A stretch of DNA of 64,000 bases from a virus (taxonomy: Duplodnaviria; Caudoviricetes). The position numbers and the translations under genes were made by a program. Of the stretch, positions 12,229 through 58,075 are shown in pieces. Numbering within the stretch: position 1 is the stretch's first letter; every line of letters starts with the position of its first letter. The DNA is taken from IMG/VR virus record IMGVR_UViG_3300002092_001784, positions 96,001-160,000 of that record, one strand, 5' to 3'. Below the pieces are notes generated by a model. That model did not search any database. It saw only the letters and a program-made list of their open reading frames with translations, and had not been told where the DNA came from.

Positions 12229-12241
12229 CAAAAAGATATTT

Positions 12242-12895: not shown

Positions 12896-13127
12896 TTTGG
12901 TAATATGAAATATTTTTTGTATATTTGTAAAAAATAAATAAGTTATGAAAGAATTAAGGATTTATGAATTTCAAGCAAAGCAAATCGAGGATACATTTCG
13001 TTTGATTGCCCGATTATTAAAATCGCAAGATAAATTAACATCTCTTGATAGAGATGTGATGCAGAGTTGGGGAATGATTGAAAATGTATTGAATGGCAAT
13101 ATCAATGAACAGGTAAAACGATAAGTT

Positions 13128-13568: not shown

Positions 13569-13570
13569 AT

Positions 13571-14131
13571 ATGAAAATTTTATTCCTTGACCACGATGGA
13601 GTAATTTGTTTGTCCCCACAGTGGGGAGGTCGTTTCAAAAACAAAGAAGGACTTGATTTGATGTTTGACAGATTTGATGATAAAGCAGTAAAGGTACTGA
13701 ATAAAATCATTGAAGAAACCGATTGCGAAATTGTGGTATCATCCGATTGGAGATTGTTCGCTACATTAGAGCAAATGCAAGAATTGTATCTTATCCGTGG
13801 TATCTTAAAATCACCGATTGATTATACACCACTAACCGCAGATACTGATGTAATACCTGATGGGTTTACATTTGATAGGTGGGAATGGGAAGTACAGCAA
13901 AGTAGGTGTTTTGAGATTAAAACTTGGTTAAAACGCCATACTGAAATTACGAATTGGGTGGCAGTTGATGATATGAATATGAGTTCAGATTATAAGTTTG
14001 AATACGATTCACATAAGCAGTTGTGGGGGTTGGATAATTTTGTAAGGACACCGATTTCAAATCAAGGAATTAAACAAACCGGAATTAAGGATAAAATTGT
14101 TAAAATACTTAATCAAACTCAAAATATGTAA
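13571..14131 (+). CDS. HAD-superfamily phosphatase (Swiss-army-knife RNA-repair-like HAD_SAK_2)
   Basis: ILFLDHDGVI, IVVSSDWR, WVAVDD. Confidence 0.75.
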   Translation: MKILFLDHDGVICLSPQWGGRFKNKEGLDLMFDRFDDKAVKVLNKIIEETDCEIVVSSDWRLFATLEQMQELYLIRGILKSPIDYTPLTADTDVIPDGFTFDRWEWEVQQSRCFEIKTWLKRHTEITNWVAVDDMNMSSDYKFEYDSHKQLWGLDNFVRTPISNQGIKQTGIKDKIVKILNQTQNM

Positions 14132-14193
14132 TAATTTAACGGAACTTTATTATTGGTTGGTATATTTATAGGTGTAATAAAATACCTATAAAG

Positions 14194-15276: not shown

Positions 15277-15312
15277 AATAGTGATTTTTTAATTTTTGAA
15301 TACTTATATACG

Positions 15313-15417
15313 ATGAAGAACACAATAAACACATACCCGCAACCTAGTAGACCAACAACCGTTGGGACAGGAAGAGGTACGCAAAATTACATAGTTCGGA
15401 ATCGCAAATTAGATTAA
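15313..15417 (+). CDS. Putative leader peptide (34 aa, MKNTINTYPQPSRPTTVGTGRGTQNYIVRNRKLD)
   Basis: Short ORF after TACTTATA and upstream of a terminator, boxA and a tRNA array. Confidence 0.55.
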   Translation: MKNTINTYPQPSRPTTVGTGRGTQNYIVRNRKLD

Positions 15418-15440
15418 ATAAAAAACATTCATATAATTTG

Positions 15441-15480
15441 AAAAATCCGAGCTAAACATAAAGAGTTCGGATTTTTTATT
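15441..15480 (+). terminator. Intrinsic terminator (attenuator 2), followed by boxA-like GTTCTTTGG at 15500
   Basis: aaaaatccgagct/agttcggattttt plus U-tract. Confidence 0.8.
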
Positions 15481-15580
15481 TTAAGATATTAACACCATCG
15501 TTCTTTGGCATAACGGAGAAAAATAATTATGGAACAAGGCATTATTATCGATATAGATATAATGGTGAATAGTGTTATAT

Positions 15581-15653
15581 GGCCCTATGATGTAATGGAT
15601 TAGCATCAGTCCCTTCTAAGGATTTCGTTAGCGTTCGAATCGCTATGGGGCTA
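15581..15653 (+). tRNA. tRNA-Arg(TCT)
   Basis: agtcc-cttctaa-ggatt. Confidence 0.9.
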
Positions 15654-15688
15654 CTAAGTTATTAAGTGTAAACTAAAAAACAGAAATT

Positions 15689-16120
15689 ATGAAATTATTA
15701 AAAATAGTATTGATATGTATATTACTATCGCTAATACCTGTTCAGTTTAAGGCTGATATTGCAGATTTGGTTGTGTTTGAAAATATATTAAAGAAAGAAC
15801 AGAAACCTCGTATTGTAACAGTAACAACATATACTGTGAATCGTAAAAAGTATACCGCTAGTGGATTTGAGGTAACTCCGGATAATCCGGCAGCAGAACG
15901 AATTATCGCAATTAGTAGGGATTTGAAGAAACGATTTGAATATGGTGAGCGTGTACTGGTTACTGGTATTGGAGAATATAGTGGGGTTTATATTATAAGG
16001 GATTTGATGGGTAAAAAGTGGAAGAACCGAATAGATATTCTAATTGATCCGGAAGATGAACATACAAAATTGTTTAATGCAAGATTGTATCGAATGGATG
16101 CTGAAGATTCAGAAAAGTAA
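15689..16120 (+). CDS. Exported 3D-domain (double-psi beta-barrel, lytic-transglycosylase-like) protein
   Basis: Signal peptide; TVTTY...TASG...IAISRD...RDLMG...RIDIL. Confidence 0.7.
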   Translation: MKLLKIVLICILLSLIPVQFKADIADLVVFENILKKEQKPRIVTVTTYTVNRKKYTASGFEVTPDNPAAERIIAISRDLKKRFEYGERVLVTGIGEYSGVYIIRDLMGKKWKNRIDILIDPEDEHTKLFNARLYRMDAEDSEK

Positions 16121-16128
16121 AAGTATAT

Positions 16129-16201
16129 AGCGAGTGAGGTGTAATGATTTTGCATACCGCATTTGGGATGCGGGGGAGGAGTTTGATTCTCACACTTGCT
16201 A
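16129..16201 (+). tRNA. tRNA-Pro(TGG)
   Basis: ccgca-tttggga-tgcgg; weak T-stem. Confidence 0.8.
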
Positions 16202-16229
16202 CAAAAAAATAAAAACGAAGTAGTTATAT

Positions 16230-16589
16230 ATGGAAAAACTAACATATAAAACCGATGGGGACATGAGTGAATACTTCGAAAGATTATCCGATATAATCAA
16301 AAAAGGGAAAACACAGGAAGAAGTGGTATCAATGATTCTTAATGTGGTAAACGCCAAGAAAAAGTTGGTGAAGTATAAAGGTGGCAAATGTGAATTATGC
16401 GGATACAATCGAAGTATAAATGCATTACATTTTCATACTCGTAACAAAGATGGTAAAGATTATATCATAAGTGGCAAAACTTTATCAATGGATACTCTTA
16501 AAAAGGATGTGGATAAATATGTATTGGTTTGTTCAAATTGCAGAGTAGAAATAAATGAAGGAATTGTTGATATTAGTTTGGAAAGTTGA
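16230..16589 (+). CDS. HNH-like Zn-finger protein, catalytic residues apparently degenerate
   Basis: YKGGKCELCGY...LHFHTRN...LVCSNCRVEIN. Confidence 0.6.
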   Translation: MEKLTYKTDGDMSEYFERLSDIIKKGKTQEEVVSMILNVVNAKKKLVKYKGGKCELCGYNRSINALHFHTRNKDGKDYIISGKTLSMDTLKKDVDKYVLVCSNCRVEINEGIVDISLES

Positions 16590-16623
16590 AATATTTTTCG
16601 TATCTTTGTAAAATTAAATAAAC

Positions 16624-16708
16624 GCCTCTATCGTATAGTGGTCGATTACAGCTGATTTGTAATCAGCATTTCGAAAGAAACTCGTCGGTTCGAATCCGGC
16701 TAGGGGCT
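16624..16708 (+). tRNA. tRNA-Thr(TGT) with long variable arm
   Basis: gctga-tttgtaa-tcagc; V-arm tttc-gaaa-gaaa. Confidence 0.85.
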
Positions 16709-16784
16709 CGGGGTAACTCATATTGAGAACCCGTTCCGATAACATACCCAGAGTGGTTACTTAAACGAAGTGTTATCAAATATT

Positions 16785-16860
16785 GCGAATGTAGCTCAAT
16801 TGGTAGAGTACGGCGTTGCCAACGCTGAGGTTGTGAGATCGTAGCTCATCATTCGCTCCA
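16785..16860 (+). tRNA. tRNA-Gly(GCC)
   Basis: cggcg-ttgccaa-cgctg; encoded CCA. Confidence 0.92.
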
Positions 16861-16973
16861 TAAGGGTTTCCCGCTTTAAGGTGAAGGACACGCGGGCGGA
16901 GACGTTCAGAATTAGTCATTAAACAATTCAAAACCTTAAGTCTATGATGGGAGGGCCCTACCCATTAAATTTT

Positions 16974-17046
16974 GCGGAAGTAGCTCAATTGGTAGAGCGC
17001 CTGCCTTCCAAGCAGGGGGTTGAGGTATCGTACACCTTCTTCCGCT
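16974..17046 (+). tRNA. tRNA-Gly(TCC)
   Basis: cctgc-cttccaa-gcagg; U73. Confidence 0.92.
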
Positions 17047-17102
17047 CCGGTCACTTTTTTGTAAGTTAGAGATGAAAGTTCGATTTTATTATATTTATAT
17101 GT

Positions 17103-17789
17103 ATGAAACGATGCAAAAAATGTAATATAGAATTTGAACCTCAACGAGGATTGTTGAATTATTGCTCATTAGCATGTAGGAACAGTAGAAATTGGACGGT
17201 TGCTGATAAATTAAAAAAATCAATTAGTGCTAAAAATAGTGCTAAAGTTATTGAATCAAACTCTAAATTATCTGATAAATTAAAAGAATATTGGTCGGAT
17301 GAAACTAAAAGATTGGCTCAATCATATCGTATAAAAAATATATGGACTGATGAAATGAGAAAAATTTATTCATCCAATCGAATGGGAGTTAAGCATTCAG
17401 CAGAAACAATAGAAAAAATAAGAACTATTCAAAAACAAAGATTAAAGGATAACCCAATGCTGCATCCTAATAGATTATGTGCTGGTATTAATGAAAGTTA
17501 TCCCGAAAGAATGATTAGGGAATATTTTGAAAATATTGGATATGTAAATGGTATTGATTTTATTCAGCAATTTGAATATAAAGGTTATTATGTAGATTTT
17601 TATATACCAAAAACTAATATTTGTATAGAAGTTGATGGTGAATATTGGCATGATAGTTCAAATCAAAAAGAAATTGATAGAGAAAATGAAATAAAGAAAA
17701 CATATAAATTATATAGATTATCCGCAAAACAAGTATTGAAAAAAGAATACGAAGATTTATTAAAAAATATATTTTCAGAATTGAATTAA
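17103..17789 (+). mobile_element. Free-standing homing-type endonuclease (N-terminal Zn ribbon, NUMOD3, C-terminal DUF559/Vsr-like nuclease)
   Basis: CKKC..CSLAC; KHSAETIEKIR; ESYPE...YYVDFY..NICIEVDGEYWH; inserted between tRNA genes. Confidence 0.75.
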
Positions 17790-17886
17790 TATAAAAACTC
17801 AAGTACCCGTACAGCTAGAGTAGGGTTAAATTAGATACGATTTCTCAGTTTCAATAACACGCTGGAAGTAGAATGCTTGAGAATAT

Positions 17887-17957
17887 TGCCCGATGGTGTA
17901 ACGGTAGCACCCATCACTTTGACTGATGTAGTTTAGGTTCGAATCCTAATCGGGCGA
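17887..17957 (+). tRNA. tRNA-Gln(TTG)
   Basis: catca-ctttgac-tgatg. Confidence 0.9.
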
Positions 17958-17970
17958 CTAAAATAGTTTT

Positions 17971-30750: not shown

Positions 30751-31971
30751 ATGAATGAAGTAACATCTTGTCCGATAACGGGCGATACTGAACGGTTTAC
30801 ATATATCAATTTGGGTGATATGCCATTGGTTAACAATTTATGCGATACTATGGATGAATCGTTTAAGTGTGATACATATCCATTAGCGGTTCAATATTTT
30901 ACTAAAAGTAAACTATCCTGTCTTACTCACAATATCGATCCGGATTTGGTATTTTCGCAATATTCATATAAATCAGGAGTAATCAAGCCATATGCCGAAC
31001 ATTGTAGAGAAATGTTTGATTTTCTAAATGATTATGCTAAGTTACACATACCCGGAATTACGGTGTTAGATATTGGTGGAAATGATGGAACTTTATTGAA
31101 AGAATTTTTGGGATTAAATCCAAAGCTGGACGTTCTAAATGTTGATGCATCGGAAAATCTAACTGAAGTGAGTTTTGTAGAAAATCACATACCTACCTTA
31201 AACGCATATTGGGGGGTTGAAACCGCTAAGCAATTAAATCGCAAATTCAAATTAATAACATCAACCAATGTTTTTCAACATACGCCACCAATAAAAGATT
31301 ATGTTGAGGCAGTTGCTATGAGTTTAGATACCAATGGATTGTGGTGTTTAGAATTTCCGTATTGGAAGGAAAGTATGGAAACTAAACAATATGATCAGAT
31401 TTATCACGAACACGTTTATTATTATTTAGTAGAGCCACTCAAATTATTATTTGACCAATATGGTTTGGATATTATAAAGATTGTAAAACAGCCAATACAT
31501 GGTGGTAGTTTACGATTACTTATAGCTAAAAAAGAAGATAAATGGCCAATATGCGGTAGTGTTGATGATCATATTTATTTTGAACAATATCTTACATCTG
31601 ACTACTATAAGGGTTGGGGTACTGATGTTCAGCTTTATATGGATACTTGCTGGGAGTTTTTAGCAGAATTGAAAAGTGAGGGAAACAATATAGTTGGATT
31701 TGGTGCAGCAGCAAAAGGGTGTGTATTTCTTAACAGTGTTGGTATAGATAATCTTACATTGGATGTTGTTATTGATGATACCGATTTGAAGCAAGATAAA
31801 TACATTCCCGGTACTGGTATTCAAATTAAGAGTAGGGAATACTTAAAGAACCATAAAGTGGATTACATTTTAATCCTAGCTCACAATTTTAAGGATGCCA
31901 TTATGGAAAGTTTGAAAGATGAATACAATGGTAAATTCATTATAATGTTTCCCACAATACAAATACTTTAA
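30751..31971 (+). CDS. NDP-sugar C-methyltransferase (class I SAM)
   Basis: LGDMPLVN, YPL, VLDIGGNDG, IYHEH, HGGSLR, GFGAAAKG, KQ..YIPG. Confidence 0.85.
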   Translation: MNEVTSCPITGDTERFTYINLGDMPLVNNLCDTMDESFKCDTYPLAVQYFTKSKLSCLTHNIDPDLVFSQYSYKSGVIKPYAEHCREMFDFLNDYAKLHIPGITVLDIGGNDGTLLKEFLGLNPKLDVLNVDASENLTEVSFVENHIPTLNAYWGVETAKQLNRKFKLITSTNVFQHTPPIKDYVEAVAMSLDTNGLWCLEFPYWKESMETKQYDQIYHEHVYYYLVEPLKLLFDQYGLDIIKIVKQPIHGGSLRLLIAKKEDKWPICGSVDDHIYFEQYLTSDYYKGWGTDVQLYMDTCWEFLAELKSEGNNIVGFGAAAKGCVFLNSVGIDNLTLDVVIDDTDLKQDKYIPGTGIQIKSREYLKNHKVDYILILAHNFKDAIMESLKDEYNGKFIIMFPTIQIL

Positions 31972-33490: not shown

Positions 33491-34718
33491 GAGAACAAAG
33501 TGTAAGACATTGGACGGCTGGATTTGATGATGGTTCGTTTTTACATGAGTGGCGTGGGTTTGCGCCATTTTGGCTAGGTTGCTTTTATGGTGAGAGTAAG
33601 TGTAATGGTGGTGAGGAAAAATATTCACATTGTTATGATTTCTGTTCTGGGATTGGTGATGTTGAGTGGTGGATAGCGGACGAGATTGCTAAATTATCAG
33701 TAGCAGAGCAAGAAGAGATGTATCAACTGATGGTACGAAACAAAGCAATTGATGATAAAATCACATACGATGCCATAAATATGATAGCAAGTGTGCTTGG
33801 GGTTGAGAAACATCATATATACCGATTAGGAAATCGCCACATCATTAAATTGGTAGAATGCAAAACAGAATCCATTGAAGATGAATACAAGAGGGCAATC
33901 AAAGGTGTAGGATTAAATACCGTAGCTACCGAGTATGACCCATTTTATAAGTTTATTTGCGAAAAATATACAGATTTGGAAGAACATGAATATACTAATA
34001 AATTTGTAATATCGTACATATCCGGCCACCGGGTAGTAGAAATAAAGGTAAGAGAACGAATCCACAAATTGGTAACAGAACATTTTTCGGAAGATGTTGT
34101 TGAAGTTAGTGAATTGTTGGAATTTATATGTAAAATAGCAGAATAAGATATGAACATTATTTACGATATTAACGATTTTTCTTGGAGCAGAGATGATAAT
34201 TCATTTTATGCAGATGCTGCTTTTTTAAGCCCAATCTATGGTGATTATCATTGTGCATTTCCAAATGGAAAGAAACAGTTCTACATTGAGAACTCTGGAA
34301 CGGGTCATTTCAGACGATTTACGTTCGTGTCCGAATTTGAACGAATCAATATGGGTGATGGAGATTTTGAACCACATTCACTTTGGGAATTTATAAGTGA
34401 AGATGGAATATTTTGCCGAATTGGTATAACAATATAATATTAAACTAAATGAAACGATTTCACGGAATGATGCCTCAAAATGAGGTTAAGATACATAAAA
34501 CTGTTAAAGTAGGTACACCACCTGTTACAGTTGTAATACAAGCTGGTGATAAGGGATGGACAATACTATATGCTGATCATTCTTCTGAATTTGAGGATGT
34601 TGAAGATAGTGCCGAAAACAATTACAATAAAGCATTCGATATTCTAAATCAACACGTTACTGATAACATAGAGTTGGATAAATTAAAAGAAAATACAAAA
34701 ATTGATGATCAAGAATAA
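33475..34718 (+). other. Three hypothetical CDSs (33475, 34150, 34449)
   Basis: Packed ORFs. Confidence 0.6.
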
Positions 34719-35157
34719 AACAATTGCTTTAATAGCACATGATGCTCGGAAAGCAGATATGGTAGAATGGGTAGACCATAACGCATCTACATTGATGAGA
34801 AATAAAATGGTATGTACTGGAACTACTGGAGCGTTGATAGAAACTGCACTAACAATACATGTGGGAGACGGTGATTATATTCCACCAATAATTAAAATGA
34901 AATCCGGTCCTATGGGTGGTGATGCACAAATTGCGGCTATGGTTGTTGAAGGTAAGGTTGATCTTTGTGTATTTCTAATTGATGATTTGACAGCAAACCC
35001 GCATGAAGCCGATATTCAGATGTTATTGAGGCAATGTAGGATACATAACATTCCTGTTGCATGTAACAGACATTCGGCAGACTTGATGATTACATCGGAT
35101 TTGTGGGGTACGAAATACAAACCAACAGAGCCAAGATATACTAAATTTAACAGATAA
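34702..35157 (+). CDS. mgsA: Methylglyoxal synthase
   Basis: IALIAHD..K, TGTTG, SGPMGGDAQI, PHEADI..LLR.C..HNIP.ACN. Confidence 0.92.
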   Translation: MMIKNKTIALIAHDARKADMVEWVDHNASTLMRNKMVCTGTTGALIETALTIHVGDGDYIPPIIKMKSGPMGGDAQIAAMVVEGKVDLCVFLIDDLTANPHEADIQMLLRQCRIHNIPVACNRHSADLMITSDLWGTKYKPTEPRYTKFNR

Positions 35158-35160
35158 AAT

Positions 35161-37543
35161 ATGAGCAGTAACACATTAACACACGCAGAGAAAGAAATCG
35201 AAATTCTTTTAAGAACATCAACCGATCCAGATGATAGACCGATTATCGAAGAGTTTATACCGGAAATATTGGCATTGGTTGATAAGTTTGGTAACTCCGG
35301 CCAATCTGGAGGTTCAGCACCGTACACTGCCAACGCAATAGCAAATGCGGTCAAAAAGTTATGTTTGCAGGAGACAATAGCTCCATTGACTGGAGAAGAT
35401 AGTGAATGGTATGAAGTGGGACGTTTTGGACCTGATGATAATATTATTCAAAACAATAGAGAATCTGCGGTATTCAAAGATGGTAAGAATGCTAGACCAC
35501 ATTATTTGGATGCCGTTATTTTCAAAGGTGAAGATGAATGGGATCAATTTACAGGTACAGTTGACGATATTTGTAGTAGGCAATATATTAAATCATTCCC
35601 ATTTACACCTAAACGATTTTATATCGATGTGGTAATAGAGCAACTGCCGGAAGATTGGACAGAAGAGCCATATTTTGAAGGCAAGGATTGGTATGATACT
35701 GCCGAGTTTGAGCAAACCGGAGTAAAGAATTGGCATAAAGGTAAGTATCGGTATCACATTAAAGACCGTAGTCAATTGGACGAAGTATTTGAATATTACG
35801 ATAAATTTGAACGGCAATGAAAGGAGTTACAGCATTATTTATAGTACTTTGGTGTGCTATTACATTTATACCAATGATATTCTTATTGTTGGATTTGGCT
35901 GTTAGTGGCAGAAACAGTTTACTGAACAATCTTATTGATGAAATTAATCGTTTTAATTAAATCCGTATGGAAAAAACTACTATTATGCTCAACGCTAAAT
36001 TGCTATTATGTAAAATGGTAGGTTATGCCATTACCATTTAACACACGGTATGAAGCTGGGTATTACTATTCGAAGTTGGATAGTAATACTGATTATATTC
36101 GTATAACAGATATTCACGATTACTTTGAAGCAAGACGATTGAATAAATTATATGAATATGATGGGTACTCTATGAATAAAATTGATGAAACCTCTATTGG
36201 AATTAAATCTTATATAAAATGCTGACAATCGAAAATATTGAAAAGTTTGTATATAGTATCAATGATATTACTATACGATACGAAGGATCGGAGTATGAAC
36301 TACCTAACAATGGTTTAGTTGCTAACGCATATTATGAGTTCAAAGTAATAGAGCCTATTAATAGTAAACTTGTAAACGGAAATCATTCAGCAGTAAAAGG
36401 ACACATAAAATTACACCGCATTGCTGATCACAAATACAAAGTAGAATGGCTACCAACTTTTGGTAATAATGTGGTACGTTGGATAACACCACAACAGCTA
36501 AAAACACCGGAATCATTTAGAAACTGGATAAGTGAAATAAATTTAACATCAAATAAACAAAGATTATGAGTAGAAGTAACGAATTTAATGAACAAAACGT
36601 TGTGGGAAACTTGCCACAAGATGACCGAATTGTTGGCCAAGATTTCCGACCAGAGACTGTTGTAAATGAACGCCCTAAAATTAGAAGAATTGAAATCAAC
36701 GAACTGGATCATGGGTATACCGTCCAAGTAGGATGCCAACATTTTGCGATTGAAAACGGAAATCGATTGCTGGCACTATTATCTGAATACATTGGAAATC
36801 CAAAGAACACTGAAAAATTATATTTCGATGGTACTTTATTTTCAGACAGACCAAATTATAAATAAACAAAGATCATGAAAACAGTAGAAATTAGTGAAGA
36901 TACTCTAAGAGGTGTATTTTTAATCTTATGTGACATGCCAACCGATCACAGTACGGATGAAGTTTATCAGGCAGCAATACCAATTATGAATAAAGCACAT
37001 CAAGATATTATAGATATGGGTAATGCCCGTAGATATGATAGTAGGGGTGCAGATTTATAATCAAACAAATCAAATCCGAACTCGGACATACTAGATAAAA
37101 AAAATAAAGCTAATACCATGACTACTAGTAATAAGGCAATAGAGACGACTATAAACATAAATGCAATAGCAAAGATAACACTATATCCAACTAGACCCTA
37201 TATAGAGAATCTTACATATAGGCCAGAAGGAAGGTATGAAGTACCTGATACGTTATTTAATGCATTCAGAAGGTTACTACATCTAGAACCTAAGACCGAA
37301 TACCTAACGGAAGGGTGGATTACGCCAGATGGGATGGAATGGAATCCGGATGAATACCATCCAGTATATCGTCTGGATACCGAAACACGTACAGTGTGGA
37401 AGCAGGCAGTGGTTACGGTAGAATTTAAGAATCATAAGCGGTGGGTGGAAAAGGTGTTCCATACCGATGCCGAAGCCAGAGAGTTTGTCCAACACCTTAC
37501 TATGTTTAGTGATAGTAAGTTCATTACCTTTATAAACGAATGA
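35161..37543 (+). other. Hypothetical CDSs (35161-35820, 36025, 36219, 36566, 36875, 37118)
   Basis: Packed + strand ORFs. Confidence 0.6.
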
Positions 37544-38298: not shown

Positions 38299-39274
38299 GT
38301 TTAACATAATTTAATATAATATCAATTAAAAATAAAAGTTTATGATATTTATTATATATTATGTTAAACTATTTAATTATGGATTGGAAACGCGTATATT
38401 TAGAAATTATAGATAGAGCTCGGACTAGAGTTATACAAAAAGGAATATATAGGGAAACGCATCATATTGTTCCTATATGCATGGGTGGAGAAAACACAAA
38501 AGAAAATAAAGTAGAGTTAACATACAGAGAACACTTTATTTGCCACCGAATATTACATATTATTTTTCCAAAGAATAAAGAATTAGCATCGGCATTTCAT
38601 ATCAGTGCCTATGGGACAAACGCAAGAAAAACTCGTAAGAGTGGAGTGTTGTGGTGTCCTTCTTCACGTGCGCTTGAAGCTGCTCGTATAGCTAAAATCC
38701 ACGCTCGTACTGGTACGCATCATAGTGAAGAAACTAAAGCCAAAATGGCTGAAACTCACCGATTGAGAAAGGAAATGGGTACACCTCGAAAACCCAGCCC
38801 ACCACTTACTGAAGAAACTAAAGAGAAAATGCGGCAGGCCAAATTAGGAAAGAGCCGTGCACCGTTTACCGAAGAGCATAAAGCCAAATTGAGAGAAGCA
38901 CGGGCTAATAGAAAATCCAAGTAAATATTCCATTAGTGTGTTATGTTAAACCGTTTTTGTAACTGATTGATTATCAGCACGTTGATAAATCAATACTATT
39001 TAACCTAATATAAGTTATAAGACACGGATTTAACATAATAATATCCGCACTGATACTCAATGAGTTAGAAGCCTTCTGCATGTGAATATACCGTAATCGT
39101 TTGTAAATGAATGGGTTAGCCCGCTTACGAATTGTTACGGTATTGTGCGTCAATCGGTTACGAAAGCCGGTATGAATAATACCTAACAGTATATAAATTA
39201 TGTTAAGTGAAGCAGATACCGACAATCGTATTATGTTAAACTGAAAGCCAATCAATAAAAATATTATGTTAATG
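38299..39274. repeat. Cluster of seven TTATGTTAA(A) motifs (XerD-half-site-like), both orientations
   Basis: 38299(-), 38359(+), 38941(+), about 39028(-), 39198(+), 39231(+), 39264(+). Confidence 0.7.
38379..38924 (+). mobile_element. HNH homing endonuclease with NUMOD3 repeats
   Basis: ETHHIVP.C.GG.N...N.V.LT.REHF.CH; HSEETKAKM, TEETKEKM, TEEHKAKL. Confidence 0.85.
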
Positions 39275-39303: not shown

Positions 39304-39369
39304 TTAACATTGGCTTAACATTATTTAACAGTTATTATTTGGAATGTCCGCATAAATGTAGTATATTTG
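39304..39369 (+). promoter_or_regulatory. Class P promoter with three TTAACA boxes, heading paralog block 1
   Basis: ttaaca at 39304, 39315, 39325; tatatttg. Confidence 0.75.
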
Positions 39370-39412: not shown

Positions 39413-39700
39413 ATGACAGCAAATGAGATGATGGAGTTACAGAGTGAGTTAAAGGCATGGTCCGAAAGAGAACGTTCGGTAGAAGAAATCGCAAGGATGG
39501 AAGCGGAGAGTGAAGAGTTCAGAATCATGCTGACCGAAGCGTTATCCCAGCCACCACTAACTCCGGATGCAGAGTTGGACTTGGCGATAGAGAGTTGGGG
39601 CTTATATTCACCCGAAGATTACGAATACTTTTATGTATTGGCAAAGAAGTTGGGCAGATATAATGAGGTAAGAAACCTCAGTTCGGCCTTATTTGAATAA
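39413..39700 (+). CDS. Acidic hypothetical protein
   Basis: ORF after promoter. Confidence 0.6.
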   Translation: MTANEMMELQSELKAWSERERSVEEIARMEAESEEFRIMLTEALSQPPLTPDAELDLAIESWGLYSPEDYEYFYVLAKKLGRYNEVRNLSSALFE

Positions 39701-39722: not shown

Positions 39723-39941
39723 ATGACATATACTGACAGATATGCGTTTTTAGTTAAATTCCTTAAAGATAACGATGCTCATACTAAATGGCAACACAAT
39801 CGTAACGTTAAGGATATTTTGGAAATAATAACAGATGAACCACAACATGCTTTCACAGCCGCCTTTAAGTGGTGGGATACTCCAGAAGGACATGATTATT
39901 GGGAAGCACTGTATTGGAAATGGATGGGTAATTTTAAGTAA
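39723..39941 (+). CDS. WxxTxEG-family paralog 1 (subfamily A)
   Basis: AFKWWDTPEGHDYW. Confidence 0.85.
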   Translation: MTYTDRYAFLVKFLKDNDAHTKWQHNRNVKDILEIITDEPQHAFTAAFKWWDTPEGHDYWEALYWKWMGNFK

Positions 39942-39944
39942 GAT

Positions 39945-40205
39945 ATGACGATAGACGAACGACAATTTATGTTTGAACAATTTCTTCAGAGTAAGGATTG
40001 TTATAATGTATTCATACAGAACTGTAAGAAGTATAAGCAGTCGTATGATAACGATATGAAATCATTGGTAATGTCAAGCTTACCATTCAGTTGTATTGAC
40101 CATGCTTTCACATGGAAAGCTACCGATGAAGGACATGATTATTGGAATGATTTGGCAAGAGAATGGTCAGAAAAATTTAAGGTATATGACAATAGAACAA
40201 CGTAA
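39945..40205 (+). CDS. WxxTxEG-family paralog 2 (subfamily B)
   Basis: AFTWKATDEGHDYW. Confidence 0.85.
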   Translation: MTIDERQFMFEQFLQSKDCYNVFIQNCKKYKQSYDNDMKSLVMSSLPFSCIDHAFTWKATDEGHDYWNDLAREWSEKFKVYDNRTT

Positions 40206-40437
40206 CGAGTTTGTCATCAATTGGTTACGACAAGAGGGGTTATATGATAGCTACCGTACCGCCTTTAGAGCCAGATGTGCTAAGGACAATGTAGGAGTGG
40301 ATAAAAAGTGGAATGATCTGATGTCGATGGATGAACCATCCGATATATTCTCAGCCGCATTTGCATTTGGTGATACGCCAGACGGGCATCTGATTTGGCC
40401 GGATGCTGCAATTCGATTCTGTAAACAATTTAAGTAG
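40186..40437 (+). CDS. WxxTxEG-family paralog 3 (subfamily C)
   Basis: MTIEQR start; AFAFGDTPDGHLIW. Confidence 0.85.
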   Translation: MTIEQRNEFVINWLRQEGLYDSYRTAFRARCAKDNVGVDKKWNDLMSMDEPSDIFSAAFAFGDTPDGHLIWPDAAIRFCKQFK

Positions 40438-40443
40438 AACACA

Positions 40444-40701
40444 ATGACGATAGAACAACGTAAAAAGTTTTTAATAGAGTTCCTAACCAACAGAGGGGCT
40501 TACACCGGATTTGTGGCAAACATAATAGCACATCATCCTAATGTGATTGTTGGTAGTTTTATTATAGATTTAGTAACTAGCAATAATCCACAGATCGCCA
40601 TAGGTGGTGCATTTCCGTGGGATGACTCACCCGAAGGTCCGACGTATTGGTCGGTATTAAGAGAAGAATTTGTAAATCAATTTAATCCGATAGAAGAATG
40701 A
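40444..40701 (+). CDS. WxxTxEG-family paralog 4
   Basis: AFPWDDSPEGPTYW. Confidence 0.85.
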   Translation: MTIEQRKKFLIEFLTNRGAYTGFVANIIAHHPNVIVGSFIIDLVTSNNPQIAIGGAFPWDDSPEGPTYWSVLREEFVNQFNPIEE

Positions 40702-40937
40702 CACCAGAACAACGTAAATTAGTATTGTATCGATTCCTGTCCGACCGTGATGCATTGGGGCATTGGAAACAGAATGTGGAGAATAACACAGACAGTATGT
40801 GGCAAAGTGCAGAATCAGCATTTGAGGATAACAATCATCAGAATTGTATAGGTAATGTATTTGGGTGGACTCAAACACCACAAGGTTCGAAGTATTGGGA
40901 AGGACTATATAATGAATGGCATCGTATGTTTGTGTAA
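40698..40937 (+). CDS. WxxTxEG-family paralog 5 (subfamily D)
   Basis: VFGWTQTPQGSKYW. Confidence 0.85.
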   Translation: MTPEQRKLVLYRFLSDRDALGHWKQNVENNTDSMWQSAESAFEDNNHQNCIGNVFGWTQTPQGSKYWEGLYNEWHRMFV

Positions 40938-40940
40938 GAT

Positions 40941-40996
40941 TTAACAATTACTTAACATTGAATAGTTGGAATGTCCGAGCTTTTGTTGTATCTTTA
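40941..40996 (+). promoter_or_regulatory. Class P promoter heading paralog block 2
   Basis: ttaaca-attac-ttaaca; tatcttta. Confidence 0.75.
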
Positions 40997-41123
40997 GGTA
41001 TTGAGTTTTGAGAGTTACTAATTAAAAATTCGGTATTATGGGTTTAGTTGTGTTGATGTTCGCTGAGTTGTGCCTGTTAGGGCTGGTTACGTTTTTAGTG
41101 TGTTACCTAAGTGGATATGAGAT

Positions 41124-41390
41124 ATGGAAGAATTAGAAATATTTGATAAGGATGGGAAGGCATTGCAACTGGCCGATCTTATATACAGTTTTATTAAAGA
41201 TAAAGCAGAAGAAAATAAAATTGATATAGAAAATGTCTATGTTGGTGTAGATGTTGGATTCCCAAAAGGTAAGACACCTATTTGGATACATACAGTCGAA
41301 AGCGTTGATAACGGCTATGATGCAATAGAATTACACAATTTTGGTAAACCGTATATAGTTTCAAATTCATTAATACACAATAAGTTATGA
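41124..41390 (+). CDS. Hypothetical protein (not a family member)
   Basis: ORF. Confidence 0.6.
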   Translation: MEELEIFDKDGKALQLADLIYSFIKDKAEENKIDIENVYVGVDVGFPKGKTPIWIHTVESVDNGYDAIELHNFGKPYIVSNSLIHNKL

Positions 41391-41632
41391 GAAAGATAAG
41401 TAATGAGAAGTTCTTAGTATGGCTAAACACACAGGGTGTATATGAACAGTTTTGCAGCAACTGCAAGCTATTGATAGCTGGTGGTACTGATTCTGTTGAA
41501 TGGTATATGAATACGCTACTTGAAGATTTCCGTAATCCAATCATGCCCGCTTTCGATTGGGATTCCTCAGTTGAGGGGTATGATCATTGGTGTGTTATTT
41601 CAGATAACTATGATGCCGAATTTAATCATTAA
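41387..41632 (+). CDS. WxxTxEG-family paralog 6
   Basis: AFDWDSSVEGYDHW. Confidence 0.85.
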   Translation: MRKISNEKFLVWLNTQGVYEQFCSNCKLLIAGGTDSVEWYMNTLLEDFRNPIMPAFDWDSSVEGYDHWCVISDNYDAEFNH

Positions 41633-41638
41633 TATAGT

Positions 41639-41878
41639 ATGACATATACTGAAAGACATACGTTTTTACTTAAATTCCTTCTCGATAACGATGCTCTTAC
41701 TCAATGGATATACAACCGTACACACATACCACTAAATGGTAAGTTTACAGAACTGTTGGATATTTTAGGCGATAATCCTAGTGATGCAATTTCAATGGCA
41801 TTTGACTGGTCACATACGGTAGAAGGGCATCAATATTGGGGAGAACTACATAGAAAATGGATGAGTAAATTTAAGTAA
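41639..41878 (+). CDS. WxxTxEG-family paralog 7 (subfamily A)
   Basis: MTYTER..FL.KFL.DNDA; AFDWSHTVEGHQYW. Confidence 0.85.
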   Translation: MTYTERHTFLLKFLLDNDALTQWIYNRTHIPLNGKFTELLDILGDNPSDAISMAFDWSHTVEGHQYWGELHRKWMSKFK

Positions 41879-41881
41879 GCG

Positions 41882-42139
41882 ATGACAGCACAACAACAAC
41901 GACGATTGGAGATATTAAACAGTTTTTTGGACGAGCATAATTGTAAAGCCAAATTTTTTAAGTATCGTGATGACTACTATACTGGACTTAATTCGTATCA
42001 ATCATATTCGAGTATGGTAACTACCCATAATCCCGCTAATGTGTTTAGTACGGCATTTAGTTGGGCGGATACACCGGAAGGTACACAATTTTGGTCAGAT
42101 TTGGCAGACGAGTTCAAATCTAAATTTATAATACAATGA
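41882..42139 (+). CDS. WxxTxEG-family paralog 8
   Basis: AFSWADTPEGTQFW. Confidence 0.85.
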   Translation: MTAQQQRRLEILNSFLDEHNCKAKFFKYRDDYYTGLNSYQSYSSMVTTHNPANVFSTAFSWADTPEGTQFWSDLADEFKSKFIIQ

Positions 42140-42384
42140 CACTAGAAGAAAGAAAGCAGTACCTAATCAAGTTCCTATGTGATATGGGGTGCTATGGCCA
42201 ATTCCTATATAACTGTAAATACCATAAGCAAAAATCGTTAGATAACGATTTTGAATCGCTCGTTATGGTAAAGTATCCGTCAGATGCCATTAGCCATGCC
42301 TTTATATGGGGGGATACGGCAGAGGGACATTCATATTGGCAGGACTTGGCAGAGGAGTTTGAATCTAAATTTATACTACAATGA
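42136..42384 (+). CDS. WxxTxEG-family paralog 9 (subfamily B)
   Basis: AFIWGDTAEGHSYW. Confidence 0.85.
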   Translation: MTLEERKQYLIKFLCDMGCYGQFLYNCKYHKQKSLDNDFESLVMVKYPSDAISHAFIWGDTAEGHSYWQDLAEEFESKFILQ

Positions 42385-42626
42385 CGGTAGAGCAACGAAA
42401 AGAATATCTAATCAAGTTCCTATGTGATATGGGATGTTATGACCAATTCCTATATAACTGTAAACATCATAAGCAAGGATTCGATAACGATTTGGAATCG
42501 CTGGCGATGGTAGAGTATCCGTACAATGTCATTAGCCGTGCTTTCACATGGATGGATACGGTGGAGGGGCGTCGATATTGGGAAGCATTGGCAAATGAGT
42601 TCAAATCTAAATTTATAACAGAATGA
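42381..42626 (+). CDS. WxxTxEG-family paralog 10 (subfamily B, recent duplicate of 9)
   Basis: AFTWMDTVEGRRYW; long DNA identities to paralog 9. Confidence 0.85.
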   Translation: MTVEQRKEYLIKFLCDMGCYDQFLYNCKHHKQGFDNDLESLAMVEYPYNVISRAFTWMDTVEGRRYWEALANEFKSKFITE

Positions 42627-42874
42627 CACCGGAACAACGTAAGGCCTTCACCATTAGATGGTTGAAGCAAGAGTTAGCCTATGATAAGTTTGAAGACAAT
42701 ATTAAAAGTTATTGTATACGCACTAATAGGCCAATCGATGAAGCGTGGGATGCGCTGATGGCAATGAATGAACCACGGGAAGTGTTTATGTCCGCATTTG
42801 TATTTATCAGCACCCCAGAGGGACAGGTCTATTGGGAAGATATAGCAATTCGATTTAGTAACCTATTCAAATAG
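42623..42874 (+). CDS. WxxTxEG-family paralog 11 (subfamily C)
   Basis: AFVFISTPEGQVYW..AIRF. Confidence 0.85.
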   Translation: MTPEQRKAFTIRWLKQELAYDKFEDNIKSYCIRTNRPIDEAWDALMAMNEPREVFMSAFVFISTPEGQVYWEDIAIRFSNLFK

Positions 42875-42879
42875 AACAT

Positions 42880-43116
42880 ATGACACCTGAACAACGAAGA
42901 CAACTTTTTTATAACTTTTTAATTGAAAACGATGCGTGGACCGCATGGTGGAACAATGTAAGTAAAGCCTCCACTATATGGTCAAAACCGGAAACTGTAT
43001 TTGACCAAAATGATTATAATAAATGTATATTTGATATGTTCGGACTAAAGACAACACCGGAAGGTGAAGATTATTGGTCTGATTTGGGACGAGCATGGAC
43101 GGATAAATTTAAGTAA
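42880..43116 (+). CDS. WxxTxEG-family paralog 12 (subfamily D)
   Basis: MFGLKTTPEGEDYW. Confidence 0.85.
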   Translation: MTPEQRRQLFYNFLIENDAWTAWWNNVSKASTIWSKPETVFDQNDYNKCIFDMFGLKTTPEGEDYWSDLGRAWTDKFK

Positions 43117-43119
43117 GAT

Positions 43120-43386
43120 ATGACAGTAGAAGAAAGAGTTAAATACCTAAAGGAGTACCTGTATGACAACAGATTGTTGGACAGCTATTACGCTAATCTC
43201 ATAAAGGATAAAGAGTATTTGCACAACACACAAACAATAGATGAAAGACTCCATACCCTATGTAATACAGATACCCCAAGATCATGCTTCGTTAGGGCAT
43301 TCAGTTGGGAACGTTCGCCCGAAGGCTTTAGTTTCTGGTTTAAGGTATCACAGGCCTTCGCAGAACGTCTAATCTATACACGATAG
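43120..43386 (+). CDS. WxxTxEG-family paralog 13
   Basis: AFSWERSPEGFSFW. Confidence 0.85.
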   Translation: MTVEERVKYLKEYLYDNRLLDSYYANLIKDKEYLHNTQTIDERLHTLCNTDTPRSCFVRAFSWERSPEGFSFWFKVSQAFAERLIYTR

Positions 43387-43720
43387 CTAGAACTTCTAAC
43401 TTTTTAGAATCCTATAATCCTATAACTTCTACACTAGCTAAATTGGAAAAAGCTAAAAACGGTGCCTGACATTTTGTCAGGTGCCGGGCACTGGTTTCTT
43501 GGAACTGGAAAAAGTTCGAGCGGGCGGGGGGAGCGCTGACTCGTTTCCGCCCCGAGCCCGGTTTTTCTCCCTAGGAGAAAGACATACTAACTTCCAATGA
43601 TTGGGACGAGCCTATCATTTGATAGTTGTCATATTGATAGTTGTCATATTGATATGTTTGTTTGGATAGCGTTTTTATAGATAGCTCGGCCCCAATCGTT
43701 ACAATCGTTACAATCGTACT
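43387..43720. repeat. Non-coding block of GC-rich hairpins and short tandem repeats
   Basis: cggtgcctgac/gtcaggtgccg hairpin; gggcgg/ccgccc; 15-bp tgatagttgtcatat x2+; 9-bp caatcgtta about x3. Confidence 0.75.
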
Positions 43721-44084: not shown

Positions 44085-44885
44085 ATGATAAAATTAAAAT
44101 CTCTATTGAACGAAGGATACCTTTGGGACTCGAAGTCACCTCTAATTGGTGGGCTTATTAAAGATATGCAACCTATGATAGATGATATAGTTGCGGCAGC
44201 AGAACGTAAGGCAGAAGAAAAGGGTATACGATTTACTAAGTTCGATAGAGAGTTTATTGAGTTAACCCTACGGTTTGATCTTCTAAAGTCATTGGGGGCA
44301 TATACGAAACCGGGTGATAAAATCGTATCGAAATCGGTATCTAAATCACATAAGGGTTCTCTAACCATAGATGCGGTAATCCAACGTGATGGCGAACGTT
44401 ATCCGTTTCATACGGAAGTGATTTACGCCGGAGGACATAGTATACAAGTTCTACACTTTAGATACCTAACACATACGAAGTTACCAAAGAGTACGAGTAA
44501 TCCGGAAGCCGATAAGGTGAAGGCGGAGTTACAACGGTTATCGAAGGGACAGAAGATTCAAAAGGATATTGATACGAATGGTAGACGAATACAAAATTTG
44601 GAAGCTAAAACAGCAGAGTTAACTGCTCAAACGGATGATGAGGCATTGGCGGCCGATAAGTATTGGAACGATGATTATTCAAAGTTGGATTGGGATGAAA
44701 TAGTACGGCGTGGTGCAGATAAAAACTACAAAGGGCGTAGTGAATTTGAAACGAGTAAGGAAGAATACCGGCAATCAATTTTGGGGCAACGGAAACGGAC
44801 GATTGCCAGTTACACCGATACCATTAAATCAATTAAAAAGGATACTGCCAAACTACAATCCAAATTGGATGCGTTGGCTAATTAA
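44085..44885 (+). CDS. MIKLKxLLxE-signal protein 2 (C-terminal coiled coil)
   Basis: MIKLKSLLNE. Confidence 0.65.
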   Translation: MIKLKSLLNEGYLWDSKSPLIGGLIKDMQPMIDDIVAAAERKAEEKGIRFTKFDREFIELTLRFDLLKSLGAYTKPGDKIVSKSVSKSHKGSLTIDAVIQRDGERYPFHTEVIYAGGHSIQVLHFRYLTHTKLPKSTSNPEADKVKAELQRLSKGQKIQKDIDTNGRRIQNLEAKTAELTAQTDDEALAADKYWNDDYSKLDWDEIVRRGADKNYKGRSEFETSKEEYRQSILGQRKRTIASYTDTIKSIKKDTAKLQSKLDALAN

Positions 44886-44902: not shown

Positions 44903-45745
44903 ATGATAAAGTTAAAGAGCTTATTAGAAGAAAATAGTTTAGTAACCGAAGCAAGTTTTTGGACTAAATTAGCTCGTAAGTGGAATTGGGCGCAAGATAT
45001 GATGATGTGGGATAAAGAGATGACATCTGGTAAAAATACCGTTGGTCGTGCAGTACCCGCCCAAATGAAAAAATGGGTTACGGGGTTGAGTAACGATAAA
45101 TTACATTCGACGTATGAGGAAGTCAATGACCCTCGCAGTATTTCTTTTCATTATTTAGCAAAGAAAAATTCACCCGAAGAGTTTTTTAAGAAACTCGTTA
45201 ACCTTGAGGTAGAGAAGCGTGGTGGTAATGAAAAAATAAGTGGTGGAAAGTTAACCAAATATTATGTGGTTTCGCATGGAAAACGATATGAGATATCCGC
45301 ATATGGTTTGCAAGATGCGATTAAACAGGCGCAGGATAAATACGGATTATCTAAAAACTTAAATCCACAAGAACTTGGACATGAAGTAGAAAAAGCTAGT
45401 GAAGTTGACAAGTGGGATGAACTTAGATTTTTCACACTAAGGTATAAGGGTAAGGATGTGGAGGTTAAGGCAAAGAATGCATATGATGCTAGGGAGTTGG
45501 CCAATAAAACATTCCACGCACCGGATAATAAATTTGATGAAATTAAAATTATTTGGGCTCAAACACCTATGGCATCGCATTCCAACGGAAAAAAACACGG
45601 AAAAAAACATAATGATGATTCCTATGTGAATCTGAAGTCCAAATCAGGCTATGGTGGTAGTGGTTATAGTGGAGATGATGACGACGATTTTGACGGATTT
45701 GGCGGCGGTTCGTTCGGTGGCGGTGGAGCCGGTGGTGACTGGTAA
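44903..45745 (+). CDS. MIKLKxLLxE-signal protein 3 with Gly/Asp-rich tail
   Basis: MIKLKSLLEE..LVTE; ends FGGGSFGGGGAGGDW. Confidence 0.65.
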   Translation: MIKLKSLLEENSLVTEASFWTKLARKWNWAQDMMMWDKEMTSGKNTVGRAVPAQMKKWVTGLSNDKLHSTYEEVNDPRSISFHYLAKKNSPEEFFKKLVNLEVEKRGGNEKISGGKLTKYYVVSHGKRYEISAYGLQDAIKQAQDKYGLSKNLNPQELGHEVEKASEVDKWDELRFFTLRYKGKDVEVKAKNAYDARELANKTFHAPDNKFDEIKIIWAQTPMASHSNGKKHGKKHNDDSYVNLKSKSGYGGSGYSGDDDDDFDGFGGGSFGGGGAGGDW

Positions 45746-52156: not shown

Positions 52157-52228
52157 GGCGAGTTCGTCTAACGGTTAGGACAAATGGTTTTCATCCATTA
52201 AATAGGGTTTCGATTACCCTACTCGCTA
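52157..52228 (+). tRNA. tRNA-Glu(TTC)
   Basis: aatgg-ttttcat-ccatt. Confidence 0.88.
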
Positions 52229-52250
52229 CGATAAACCAAACACGCTAGGT

Positions 52251-52291
52251 GACGACCACAGGTGATATTGTTGGCAGCTCGGAAAGACGGC
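52251..52291 (+). ncRNA. GAAAGA-loop small RNA, copy 3
   Basis: cagctcggaaagacggc identical to 5049-5065. Confidence 0.45.
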
Positions 52292-52297
52292 AAATAT

Positions 52298-52371
52298 GGT
52301 GCGTTAGGCAAATTGGCTAAGCCGTCAGCCCTTCAAGCTGAAGATTTCGGGATCGTACCCCGAACGCACTA
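52298..52371 (+). tRNA. Second tRNA with TTC (Glu) anticodon, C33 variant
   Basis: ggtgcgt/acgcact; tcagc-ccttcaa-gctga. Confidence 0.7.
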
Positions 52372-52377
52372 CACTTA

Positions 52378-52661
52378 GATAGTTTCATAATTTAAGGTCA
52401 AGCCACATTATGTTGAGTGGAGTTTACTTCATTTGACGCCAGATGAAATTATCGAGGTAACGAAGGATTAGAGGTGGCTGTGACTACTTCGTTACCAGCG
52501 GGATAAATAATGGAAGTTAGTTGACAAACGGCTTAAAGAAAATGTTGACAGATACCGCCTGTATGGTAACCGGCCGCTACCTTAAAGGCTTGAATTGACA
52601 ACCATTGTTTTGAAAAATCTATGAGTAATCATAGTATCTTTGGGGGTAATTAACCAAAGAT
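52378..52661 (+). ncRNA. Structured ncRNA region (unassigned)
   Basis: gatagtttcat/atgaaattatc, ggtaacgaag/cttcgttacc, aaataatgg/ccattgttt, atctttgg/ccaaagat. Confidence 0.45.
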
Positions 52662-52680
52662 TAGAAGGTTCGAAACTTCA

Positions 52681-52801
52681 AAATGGTTTAGTGTATTGGG
52701 CACGGGTCAAACAGACTATTATAAAATAATATAGAACTGAAATAGCTGTGAGATAAATAATGTTGATTCCAGCATTGGGTTCGAATCCCAATAACCGTTT
52801 T
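52681..52801 (+). ncRNA. tRNA-like RNA, 8-bp acceptor, about 70-nt core
   Basis: aaatggtt/aaccgttt; D gtg-tattggg-cac; T ttggg-ttcgaat-cccaa. Confidence 0.55.
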
Positions 52802-52807
52802 TAATGT

Positions 52808-52878
52808 AAAGTTATTAGTGTGAGGTCACACATCGGTATATAACCACTGATGCAAGGTTCGATTCCTTCATAACTTTC
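52808..52878 (+). ncRNA. tRNA-sized tRNA-like RNA with ambiguous anticodon arm
   Basis: aaagttat/ataacttt; D gtgt-gaggtc-acac; T aagg-ttcgatt-cctt. Confidence 0.55.
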
Positions 52879-52918
52879 TATACGAAAATTGTTCTTTGTA
52901 TATATTTATATTTAATAT

Positions 52919-52994
52919 GGTCTTAGGGGCTGCATGGAGTGGCCGTCTGCCTGTCACGCAGAATATCAGGAGGGATCGTTACCCTTTGGGACCG
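52919..52994 (+). tRNA. tRNA-Asp(GTC)
   Basis: tctgc-ctgtcac-gcaga; G73. Confidence 0.88.
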
Positions 52995-53094
52995 CAAAAG
53001 AAATGGGATTGAAATAGGAAAACGGCAATTTTCCAATAGTAAATTTGGTTTCACTACTAAAAGGTAAGTTTGCCGACAAACCAAAAAGTAGTTT

Positions 53095-53164
53095 TTCTCA
53101 TTAGTTCAATTGGAAGAACCCCGGTAGGAACTGGGTGATGTAGGTTCGAGTCCTACATGGGAAT
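53095..53164 (+). ncRNA. tRNA-like RNA with 4-nt loop in place of the anticodon loop
   Basis: ttctcat/atgggaa; D gttc-aattggaa-gaac; cccggt-agga-actggg; gtagg-ttcgagt-cctac. Confidence 0.65.
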
Positions 53165-53277
53165 CATAACATAGGTGGGTAGGTAGGATGCACAGAATGT
53201 ACTGTTAAACTAATGTGTAGGGTATCGCTTGTATGATAATAACAGTAGAGGTGTACAGTAACCTATGTTTTTTATTT

Positions 53278-53352
53278 GGGGTCGTAGATTAATTGGCTAA
53301 ATCACCTGATTTGCATTCAGGAGACTTGAGGGTTCGAAGCCCTTCGATTCCA
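53278..53352 (+). tRNA. tRNA-Ala(TGC)
   Basis: cctga-tttgcat-tcagg; G3:U70. Confidence 0.92.
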
Positions 53353-53426
53353 CGAATACTAACACATTGGCTTTGTGTTGAATTTATCGGATAACATGCC
53401 GTTTACATTATTATGTAATAAAAGAA

Positions 53427-58032: not shown

Positions 58033-58075
58033 CTGAAAATTTGGAAATACGAAATATTATTCGTATATTTGTTTT

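Follow-up and report, generated by a model that had tools for sequence, protein, structure and literature searches.

The 64,000-nucleotide (nt) window analysed here comprises bases 96001-160000 of a 266,153-bp virus record (IMGVR_UViG_3300002092_001784), a freshwater jumbo phage genome. At window positions 39723-43386 it carries thirteen intact paralogous open reading frames (ORFs) of 72-88 amino acids (aa), arranged head-to-tail on the + strand and numbered m1 to m13 in that order. The domain that these genes encode is not an oddity of this phage, as a sequence-only reading of the window had treated it, but a very large, undescribed and mainly phage-borne family: an exhaustive profile search of 1.84 billion cluster representatives (clusters at 50% identity) finds 5,487 that match at E<=1e-3, often as multi-repeat polypeptides. 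What is new here is a common domain that is absent from Pfam and from the solved structures and whose motif gave no match in the literature, yet is confidently folded by structure prediction. Its abundance, its confident fold, its independent amplification in several large phages and its retention by a microvirus of 5.8 kb together make the domain a strong candidate for a novel class of phage proteins directed at the host.

Spread and predicted fold of the domain

A profile built from the thirteen copies matches every one of them (E 6e-34 to 4e-23), and the same search across the whole genome finds no 14th copy elsewhere. Because each copy is matched strongly and nothing else in the genome is, a chance grouping can be excluded. 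In the alignment of the copies (A1), columns M1, L14, F48, G56 and W60 (m1 numbering) are invariant, and the consensus reads MTxEQRxxxLxxFL ... AFxWxxTPEGxxYWxxLxxxFxxxF.

At the stricter threshold of E<=1e-10, 230 representatives match the family profile. Among the best 150 representatives, 104 contain 2-9 matched stretches per polypeptide, the maximum of nine repeats occurring in a 964-aa protein; the source names of homologues are absent or read "hypothetical protein." A scan with a degenerate DNA pattern for F.W..[TS].EG..[YF]W, whose matches were then checked with a hidden Markov model (HMM), found at least 118 motif loci in IMG/VR viral contigs, at least 108 of them HMM-confirmed. Among the confirmed viral loci listed (108), 84 have a single copy in the stretch examined, and the largest has 8. 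The genome collection yielded at least 120 motif loci, at least 60 confirmed by HMM; among the 60 confirmed loci listed, many are contigs of gut Bacteroidota metagenome-assembled genomes (MAGs), and others come from Saccharibacteria, Clostridiales, Sulfurospirillum and one Bacilli MAG. Counts over whole records show how widely copy number varies:

98-kb contig: 12 copies, in a tight array
317-kb jumbo phage: 10 copies
230-kb phage fragment: 7 copies
735-kb megaphage LR756501: 3 copies
5.8-kb Microviridae genome: 1 copy

In Microviridae sp. MG945453.1 (L254, from civet faeces) the domain lies at 5048-5254 on the + strand (E 8.6e-12), among few non-structural ORFs. The arrays of other phages group by phage in the tree, and their expansions are thus independent. 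Megablast of the array against 50,697 deposited phages gave no match; tblastn with m8 and three family members matched only the records LR756501/LR756503 of the 735-kb megaphage and one Microviridae, and with m9 alone no close relative was found in IMG/VR.

The sequence-only reading had recognised no characterised family with the motif, and this held in every comparison with known families. Pfam and NCBIfam have no entry that scores above its cut-off for the thirteen copies, for 57 family members or for 30 long homologues; the best stray match (E 0.0039) is under its own cut-off, and the Pfam scan of the 30 long or fused homologues finds no informative domain fusion. PADLOC identifies no defence component among the 57 members (a single stray match to DrmMI, E 0.0058), a sequence profile search of the PDB returned chance matches only, and a literature search by motif strings did not find the motif. 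Four PHROG families are matched at E<=1e-3 among the 57 members (phrog_16354 by 36, phrog_10949 by 16, phrog_25460 by 13 and phrog_20568 by 7). Like the array members, these are small phage proteins, but they lend no name, as all four are labelled "unknown function" and carry no description. None of these matches is strong (best E 5e-8) and most are partial, covering in the window copies mostly profile positions ~45-72, which is the C-terminal AFxWxxTxEGxxYW region; m3, m4 and m6 have no PHROG match (three of the ten window copies tested).

An AlphaFold2 model of m9, built from 57 sequences, has a predicted local distance difference test score (pLDDT) of 94.5 and a predicted template modelling score (pTM) of 0.83, with five helices at 3-16, 20-29, 39-43, 50-53 and 65-77. 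The model of a natural two-domain protein (P0009, from a 1.6-kb contig, in which units of the C and B types, in that order, are fused in frame; subfamilies listed below) shows the same architecture twice (pLDDT 92.7, pTM 0.70). Foldseek against the PDB gave a best E of 3.3, a comparison with 48,161 PDB representatives gave best Z scores of 4.4 for one domain and 5.0 for two with no row distinct, and the Swiss-Prot models contain no fold match. The only good fold matches, at a template modelling score (TM) of ~0.7, are to proteins of gut phages, crAss-like phages among them, and to one bacterial protein, all of them uncharacterised. SAM, HRDC, bromodomain and HAD cap domains are of similar size (~70-80 aa) and likewise place short helices between a long first and a long last one. 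Each was considered and set aside: the TM to SAM-domain proteins is 0.41-0.43, not above background, and the Z scores to HRDC (4.4), bromodomains (3-4.4) and HAD-type phosphatases (~4-5) are those usual for unrelated helical proteins. A homodimer co-fold scored 0.11 against a mark of 0.42, a result that is uninformative either way.

Conservation was read from 343 distinct aligned domains, some of which were found via the motif, so that the motif columns carry a bias. Information is concentrated in hydrophobic or aromatic columns spaced as in a helix (10, 13, 14, 23, 55, 59, 61, 70, 71, 74, 78 and 82) and in N26, T64, E66 and G67, with no obvious catalytic constellation. Columns 28-54 carry almost no information, in keeping with the conserved ends and variable middle that the sequence-only reading had described. 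This pattern suggests that the conserved motif forms a hydrophobic fold core with a variable surface, and the aromatic spacing appears to fit such a core at least as well as the Trp-lined pocket that had been proposed. The thirteen proteins are acidic (isoelectric points 4.3-6.7), and DNA binding is therefore disfavoured; no hint of a membrane segment was noticed in their sequences or in the helix model.

Layout, transcription and history of the array

The sole break in the array is a 449-nt gap at 40938-41386, which holds an unrelated 88-aa ORF and separates two blocks, each beginning with a small non-family ORF (39413-39700 and 41124-41390). The ATGA-type coupling that had been noted is present at four member/member junctions (m4/m5, m8/m9, m9/m10 and m10/m11) and also joins the 88-aa leader ORF to m6; m2 and m3 overlap by 20 nt, and the remaining junctions are gaps of 3-6 nt. 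The start of m3 is taken as a family-consistent ATG within a longer TTG frame. The elements of the region, all on the + strand, are as follows:

39338-39369, +: promoter 1, Bacteroidota type (TTTG-N-TAnnTTTG; TTTGGAATGTCC...GTATATTTG), an exact match to TTTG-N17-21-TAnnTTTG
39413-39700, +: leader ORF of block 1, 95 aa, non-family, no Pfam match
39723-39941, +: m1, subfamily A, 72 aa; 53% identity to m7
39945-40205, +: m2, subfamily B, 86 aa; 49% identity to m9 (43% to m10)
40186-40437, +: m3, subfamily C, 83 aa; overlaps m2; 45% identity to m11
40444-40701, +: m4, 85 aa; no block 2 partner
40698-40937, +: m5, subfamily D, 79 aa; ATGA overlap with m4; 39% identity to m12
40965-40997, +: promoter 2, a degenerate duplicate of promoter 1 with two consensus mismatches and identical spacing, found by a relaxed pattern
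41124-41390, +: leader ORF of block 2, 88 aa, non-family, no Pfam match; ATGA overlap with m6
41387-41632, +: m6, 81 aa; the most divergent copy, lacking the MTxEQR start
41639-41878, +: m7, subfamily A, 79 aa; first 83 nt 84% identical to m1
41882-42139, +: m8, 85 aa; orthologues P0071 and P0061 in related phage fragments
42136-42384, +: m9, subfamily B, 82 aa; the copy used for the structure model
42381-42626, +: m10, 81 aa; recent duplicate of m9
42623-42874, +: m11, subfamily C, 83 aa; 78% identical to its orthologue in the related fragment L263
42880-43116, +: m12, subfamily D, 78 aa; absent from L263
43120-43386, +: m13, the final copy, 88 aa; 70% identical to its L263 orthologue
43460-43486, +: 12-bp hairpin 3' of m13 (-20.3 kcal/mol, z -4.15), candidate terminator
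43518-43566, +: GC-rich stem followed by a U-run, candidate terminator closing the array; energy not above shuffles

Promoter 1, of the -33/-7 type, precedes the 95-aa ORF and then m1-m5, and promoter 2 precedes the 88-aa ORF and then m6-m13, so that the description of two promoter-led blocks was sound. The two 49-nt promoter regions (repeat D8, 39320-39368 versus 40947-40995) are 73% identical, from which we conclude that the promoter was included in the block duplication. The window contains the pattern TTTG-N17-21-TAnnTTTG 23 times where 3.6 would be expected, with 22 of the sites on the + strand (matches lie at 626-657, 5697-5728, 39338-39369 and 58040-58071, among other sites), with an extended consensus of TTTGGAAA...GTATNTTTG, also given as TTTGGAAA-N-GTAT(A/C)TTTG. 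A generic sigma-70 consensus showed no enrichment (23 found, 23.1 expected), and the Bacteroidota consensus was used instead. Over the whole genome there are 52 + strand sites, which are concentrated in 0-190 kb and nearly missing from the last 70 kb, a distribution that points to a division of the genome into early and late parts. From the type and distribution of these promoters we infer early transcription by the host RNA polymerase and a Bacteroidota host, and the early expression proposed by the sequence-only reading is likewise what host-type promoters would point to. At the other end of the array, the GC-rich element that follows m13 is the same one at which the arrays of two related fragments, L263 and L264, come to an end.

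The tree recovers the subfamilies, with a support of 99 for the clade of m3, and both blocks share the order A-B-C-D, their colinear pairs ranging in identity from 53% (m1 and m7) to 39% (m5 and m12); m4, m6, m8 and m13 have no counterpart in the other block. Proteins of related fragments nest within the subfamilies, P0030 with m11, P0071 and P0061 with m8, and P0008 with m13. More recent events are seen within block 2, where m9 and m10 are 69% identical in aa sequence (synonymous divergence, dS, 0.63; ratio of non-synonymous to synonymous rates, omega, 0.27) and a DNA repeat of 163-202 nt recurs at a spacing of ~245 nt across m8-m11, most strongly between m9 and m10 (D1/D2). The old segmental duplication and the continuing local duplication that had been proposed are thus both borne out. 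Junction sequences recur and the 5' ends are homogenised (repeats D3-D6), as in the first 83 nt of m1 and m7 listed above (repeat D5). Between these two genes dS is 0.11 over the first 26 codons versus 1.08 over the last 30, and gene conversion at the 5' ends is therefore indicated.

Two short contigs from related phages extend this history. L263 lacks m9, m10 and m12; what it does carry is an m11-like gene, an m13-like gene and the decayed remnant of an m8-like one. The remnant (1-156) has stops upstream, its motif has become TTGG and it lies directly 5' of the m11-like gene; it is an example of copy death within the array. In L264 at least five members follow one another: x, an A-like copy, an m8-like copy, a B-like copy and a further one. 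In four contigs of the present phage, from four samples, the array is identical except for two indels in one contig; the datasets that carry this DNA are all freshwater DNA metagenomes, most of them possible sources of it. The array evolves by birth and death at a conserved locus, through an old duplication of the block including its promoter, a recent duplication giving m9 and m10, and loss or decay of copies in relatives.

Omega is 0.25-0.56 between paralogues and 0.56-0.93 between orthologues. With values of 0.25-0.9 overall the genes are constrained and are not pseudogenes, and the alternative that most copies might be pseudogenes fails also on the intactness of all thirteen frames. Between m11 and its orthologue, 16 of the 18 residue differences fall at positions 29-63. 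Positive selection in the middle segment was considered and then abandoned, because the m11 middle omega of 2.7 under one choice of boundaries fell to 1.1 under another and the pooled contrast was not significant (p=0.43). Of the "diversifying repertoire" that the sequence-only reading had proposed, the repertoire of paralogues is real, whereas diversifying selection is not supported.

Possible functions of the array products

The reading that we favour, tentatively and with less than even confidence, is that the array products are early-made, stoichiometric protein binders with paralogue-specific host targets, likeliest defence or toxin effectors or targets of host takeover. The conserved ends, namely helix 1 (FxxFL) and the AFxWxxTxEGxxYWxxIxxxWxxxF segment, would build the hydrophobic core of a non-enzymatic scaffold, and the hypervariable middle (helix 2, loop and helix 3) would provide the specificity surface. 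The products would be made early, from promoters of the host RNA polymerase, and act stoichiometrically as soluble, acidic binders, with a different host protein engaged by every paralogue or, in the fused forms, by every repeat. A large genome could afford a panel of such binders, and small phages would carry one copy.

A binder of host proteins, and among such functions an anti-defence role, is plausible. The anti-defence proposal of the sequence-only reading gains weak contextual support from homologues in early and replication modules and from a gene 3.9 kb upstream of the array. This ORF (35161-35820, + strand, 219 aa) scores 80.7 bits (cut-off 27; E 9.6e-23) against Pfam PF25185, "Type I Thoeris inhibitor Tad3", and is a candidate anti-Thoeris gene of a freshwater jumbo phage whose promoters are of the Bacteroidota type. 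Tad3 is a homodimeric inhibitor that binds the Thoeris protein ThsB (PMC13728456). The Tad3-Tad6 inhibitors, discovered through co-folding screens, bind ThsB (PMC13728456). The array products are small and, like such inhibitors, would be early and non-enzymatic, and the mode that we propose for them is direct protein contact. The array proteins differ in having no homology to any Tad or other described inhibitor. To our knowledge, known inhibitors are not usually amplified to arrays of thirteen copies. Tandem paralogue arrays as such are a familiar feature of large phages.

A more ambitious version holds that the domain is a new fold serving as an evolvable binder scaffold, used as single genes, as arrays and as beads-on-a-string polyproteins, with the present array as a multi-target counter-defence battery. 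We consider this version doubtful, if attractive; were it true, the family of 5,487 clusters would be a large untapped source of inhibitors. The thirteen small, soluble natural variants are in any event a ready-made panel for direct testing of function, and if the units are inhibitors they could supply many new tools and targets.

Several points weigh against the binder reading. The promoter type alone suggests the host, and to the level of phylum, and the assignment of the conserved residues to a core and not to a pocket likewise derives from the residue pattern alone. The Tad3 homologue is separated from the array by its 3.9 kb and about ten small ORFs, together with an HNH/NUMOD3 endonuclease gene, so that its nearness would be guilt by association only. 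No constant partner gene accompanies the family beyond lineage synteny (164 loci), and neighbourhoods elsewhere suit replication or recombination as well as counter-defence. Finally, the middle segment, which should carry specificity, has more synonymous as well as more non-synonymous change, and its contrast with the flanks, pooled over two orthologue pairs, gives a Fisher p of 0.43.

The neighbourhoods bear most directly on a role as accessory factors of phage DNA replication, recombination or transcription, in which the domain would bind parts of the replisome, of the recombination apparatus or of RNA polymerase, whether the phage's or the host's, with the paralogues adjusting separate steps or partners. 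Helicases, primase-helicases, primases, DNA polymerase A, VRR-NUC, DNA methylase and helix-turn-helix (HTH) proteins are the recurrent annotated neighbours across the 164 loci, a homologue with five repeats is flanked by primase and DNA polymerase A genes in a ~49-kb phage, and small acidic helical proteins resemble many adaptor subunits. Were this the role, one of the common dark-matter genes in the early regions of phages would be accounted for. It nevertheless seems unlikely, as sets of 7-13 divergent copies or strings of nine repeats are rare among replication accessory factors, copy content varies among close relatives in a way unusual for core machinery, and the array here lies among tRNAs and small ORFs with no recognisable replication gene adjoining. 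Another alternative is a family that is largely dispensable filler, duplication-prone and spread by unequal recombination at the repeated junctions, each copy being of little selective value, or else a minor family of virion or internal proteins. The recurring junctions and homogenised 5' ends (m1/m7 dS of 0.11 over the first 26 codons) attest to active recombination, orthologue omega reaches 0.9, L263 contains a decayed copy, and jumbo phages tolerate extra DNA. We nonetheless think filler improbable given that all thirteen frames are intact and are the same in the four contigs compared from four samples, that paralogue omega is 0.25-0.56, that the subfamilies persist in related phages, and that even a Microviridae genome of 5.8 kb retains a copy. 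The virion version is further disfavoured by the host-type promoters, which argue against late structural expression, and no virion-structural family occurs among the ten neighbour clusters annotated.

Two further proposals concern counter-defence in particular. As a sub-case of it, the products could be immunity-type antitoxins that neutralise toxin domains, whether of polymorphic toxins or of effectors from host abortive-infection or toxin-antitoxin systems. Tandem arrays and fused repeats are formed by immunity proteins such as SUKH. The present family resembles them in its tandem divergent small paralogues, in-frame repeat fusions and spread to viruses. Of the SUKH and Imm families of polymorphic toxin systems (PMC3113570, PMC3482391), SUKH-type immunity domains are described as having been recruited by DNA viruses (PMC3113570). 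The array family is, in addition, a small non-enzymatic domain found in phages and in Bacteroidota contigs. It differs in having no match to any Pfam immunity family, a predicted fold that matches none, and no toxin genes among the recurrent neighbours of the 164 loci, and we give this proposal a low probability, comparable to that of filler. Sponges for immune signalling nucleotides, of the Tad1, Tad2 and Acb2 type, are less probable still. The conserved W/F/Y residues with N26, T64 and E66 could line a ligand pocket, the proteins are small and would be made early, and a homologue of a Thoeris inhibitor is encoded nearby; but no sequence or fold match to known sponges was found in Pfam, PDB or BFVD, and multi-repeat polypeptides are atypical of sponges. 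Known nucleotide sponges are homo-oligomers; the homodimer co-fold described above lent the sponge idea no support, although its result is uninformative. Moreover, thirteen ligand specificities would need a pocket that varies, whereas in the array the motif that would form it is invariant and the variation lies elsewhere. Host-protein binding by a common scaffold with a variable surface remains the reading that we prefer, at the tentative level given above.

Neighbouring genes

The array sits in a promoter-dense part of the genome that is rich in transfer RNA (tRNA) genes, among tRNAs and small ORFs. ARAGORN finds 24 tRNA genes in the window, all on the + strand and in two clusters (5773-17958 and 52157-53353), two of them with odd anticodon loops. 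Immediately 5' of the Tad3 homologue, a 151-aa ORF (34702-35157, + strand) has a Pfam MGS-like domain (E 9.5e-8). The endonuclease gene between the Tad3 region and the array (38361-38924, + strand) encodes a 187-aa HNH-type homing endonuclease with a NUMOD3 motif (Pfam E 5e-5).

DNA methylase genes are directly adjacent to the family gene in 4 of the 164 loci. At four unrelated loci (L129, L174, L175 and L201), an N6/N4 DNA methyltransferase gene abuts the family gene or overlaps with it, on one side or the other. Within the window, a 406-aa protein (30751-31971, + strand) is 47% identical to one from the 735-kb uncultured megaphage LR756501, a match given as the only link found to deposited phages, and its weaker matches are annotated as methyltransferase-domain proteins in cyanophages. 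Just 3' of the array, two ORFs (44085-44885 and 44903-45745, both on the + strand and without Pfam match) both begin with MIKLKSLL and then diverge.

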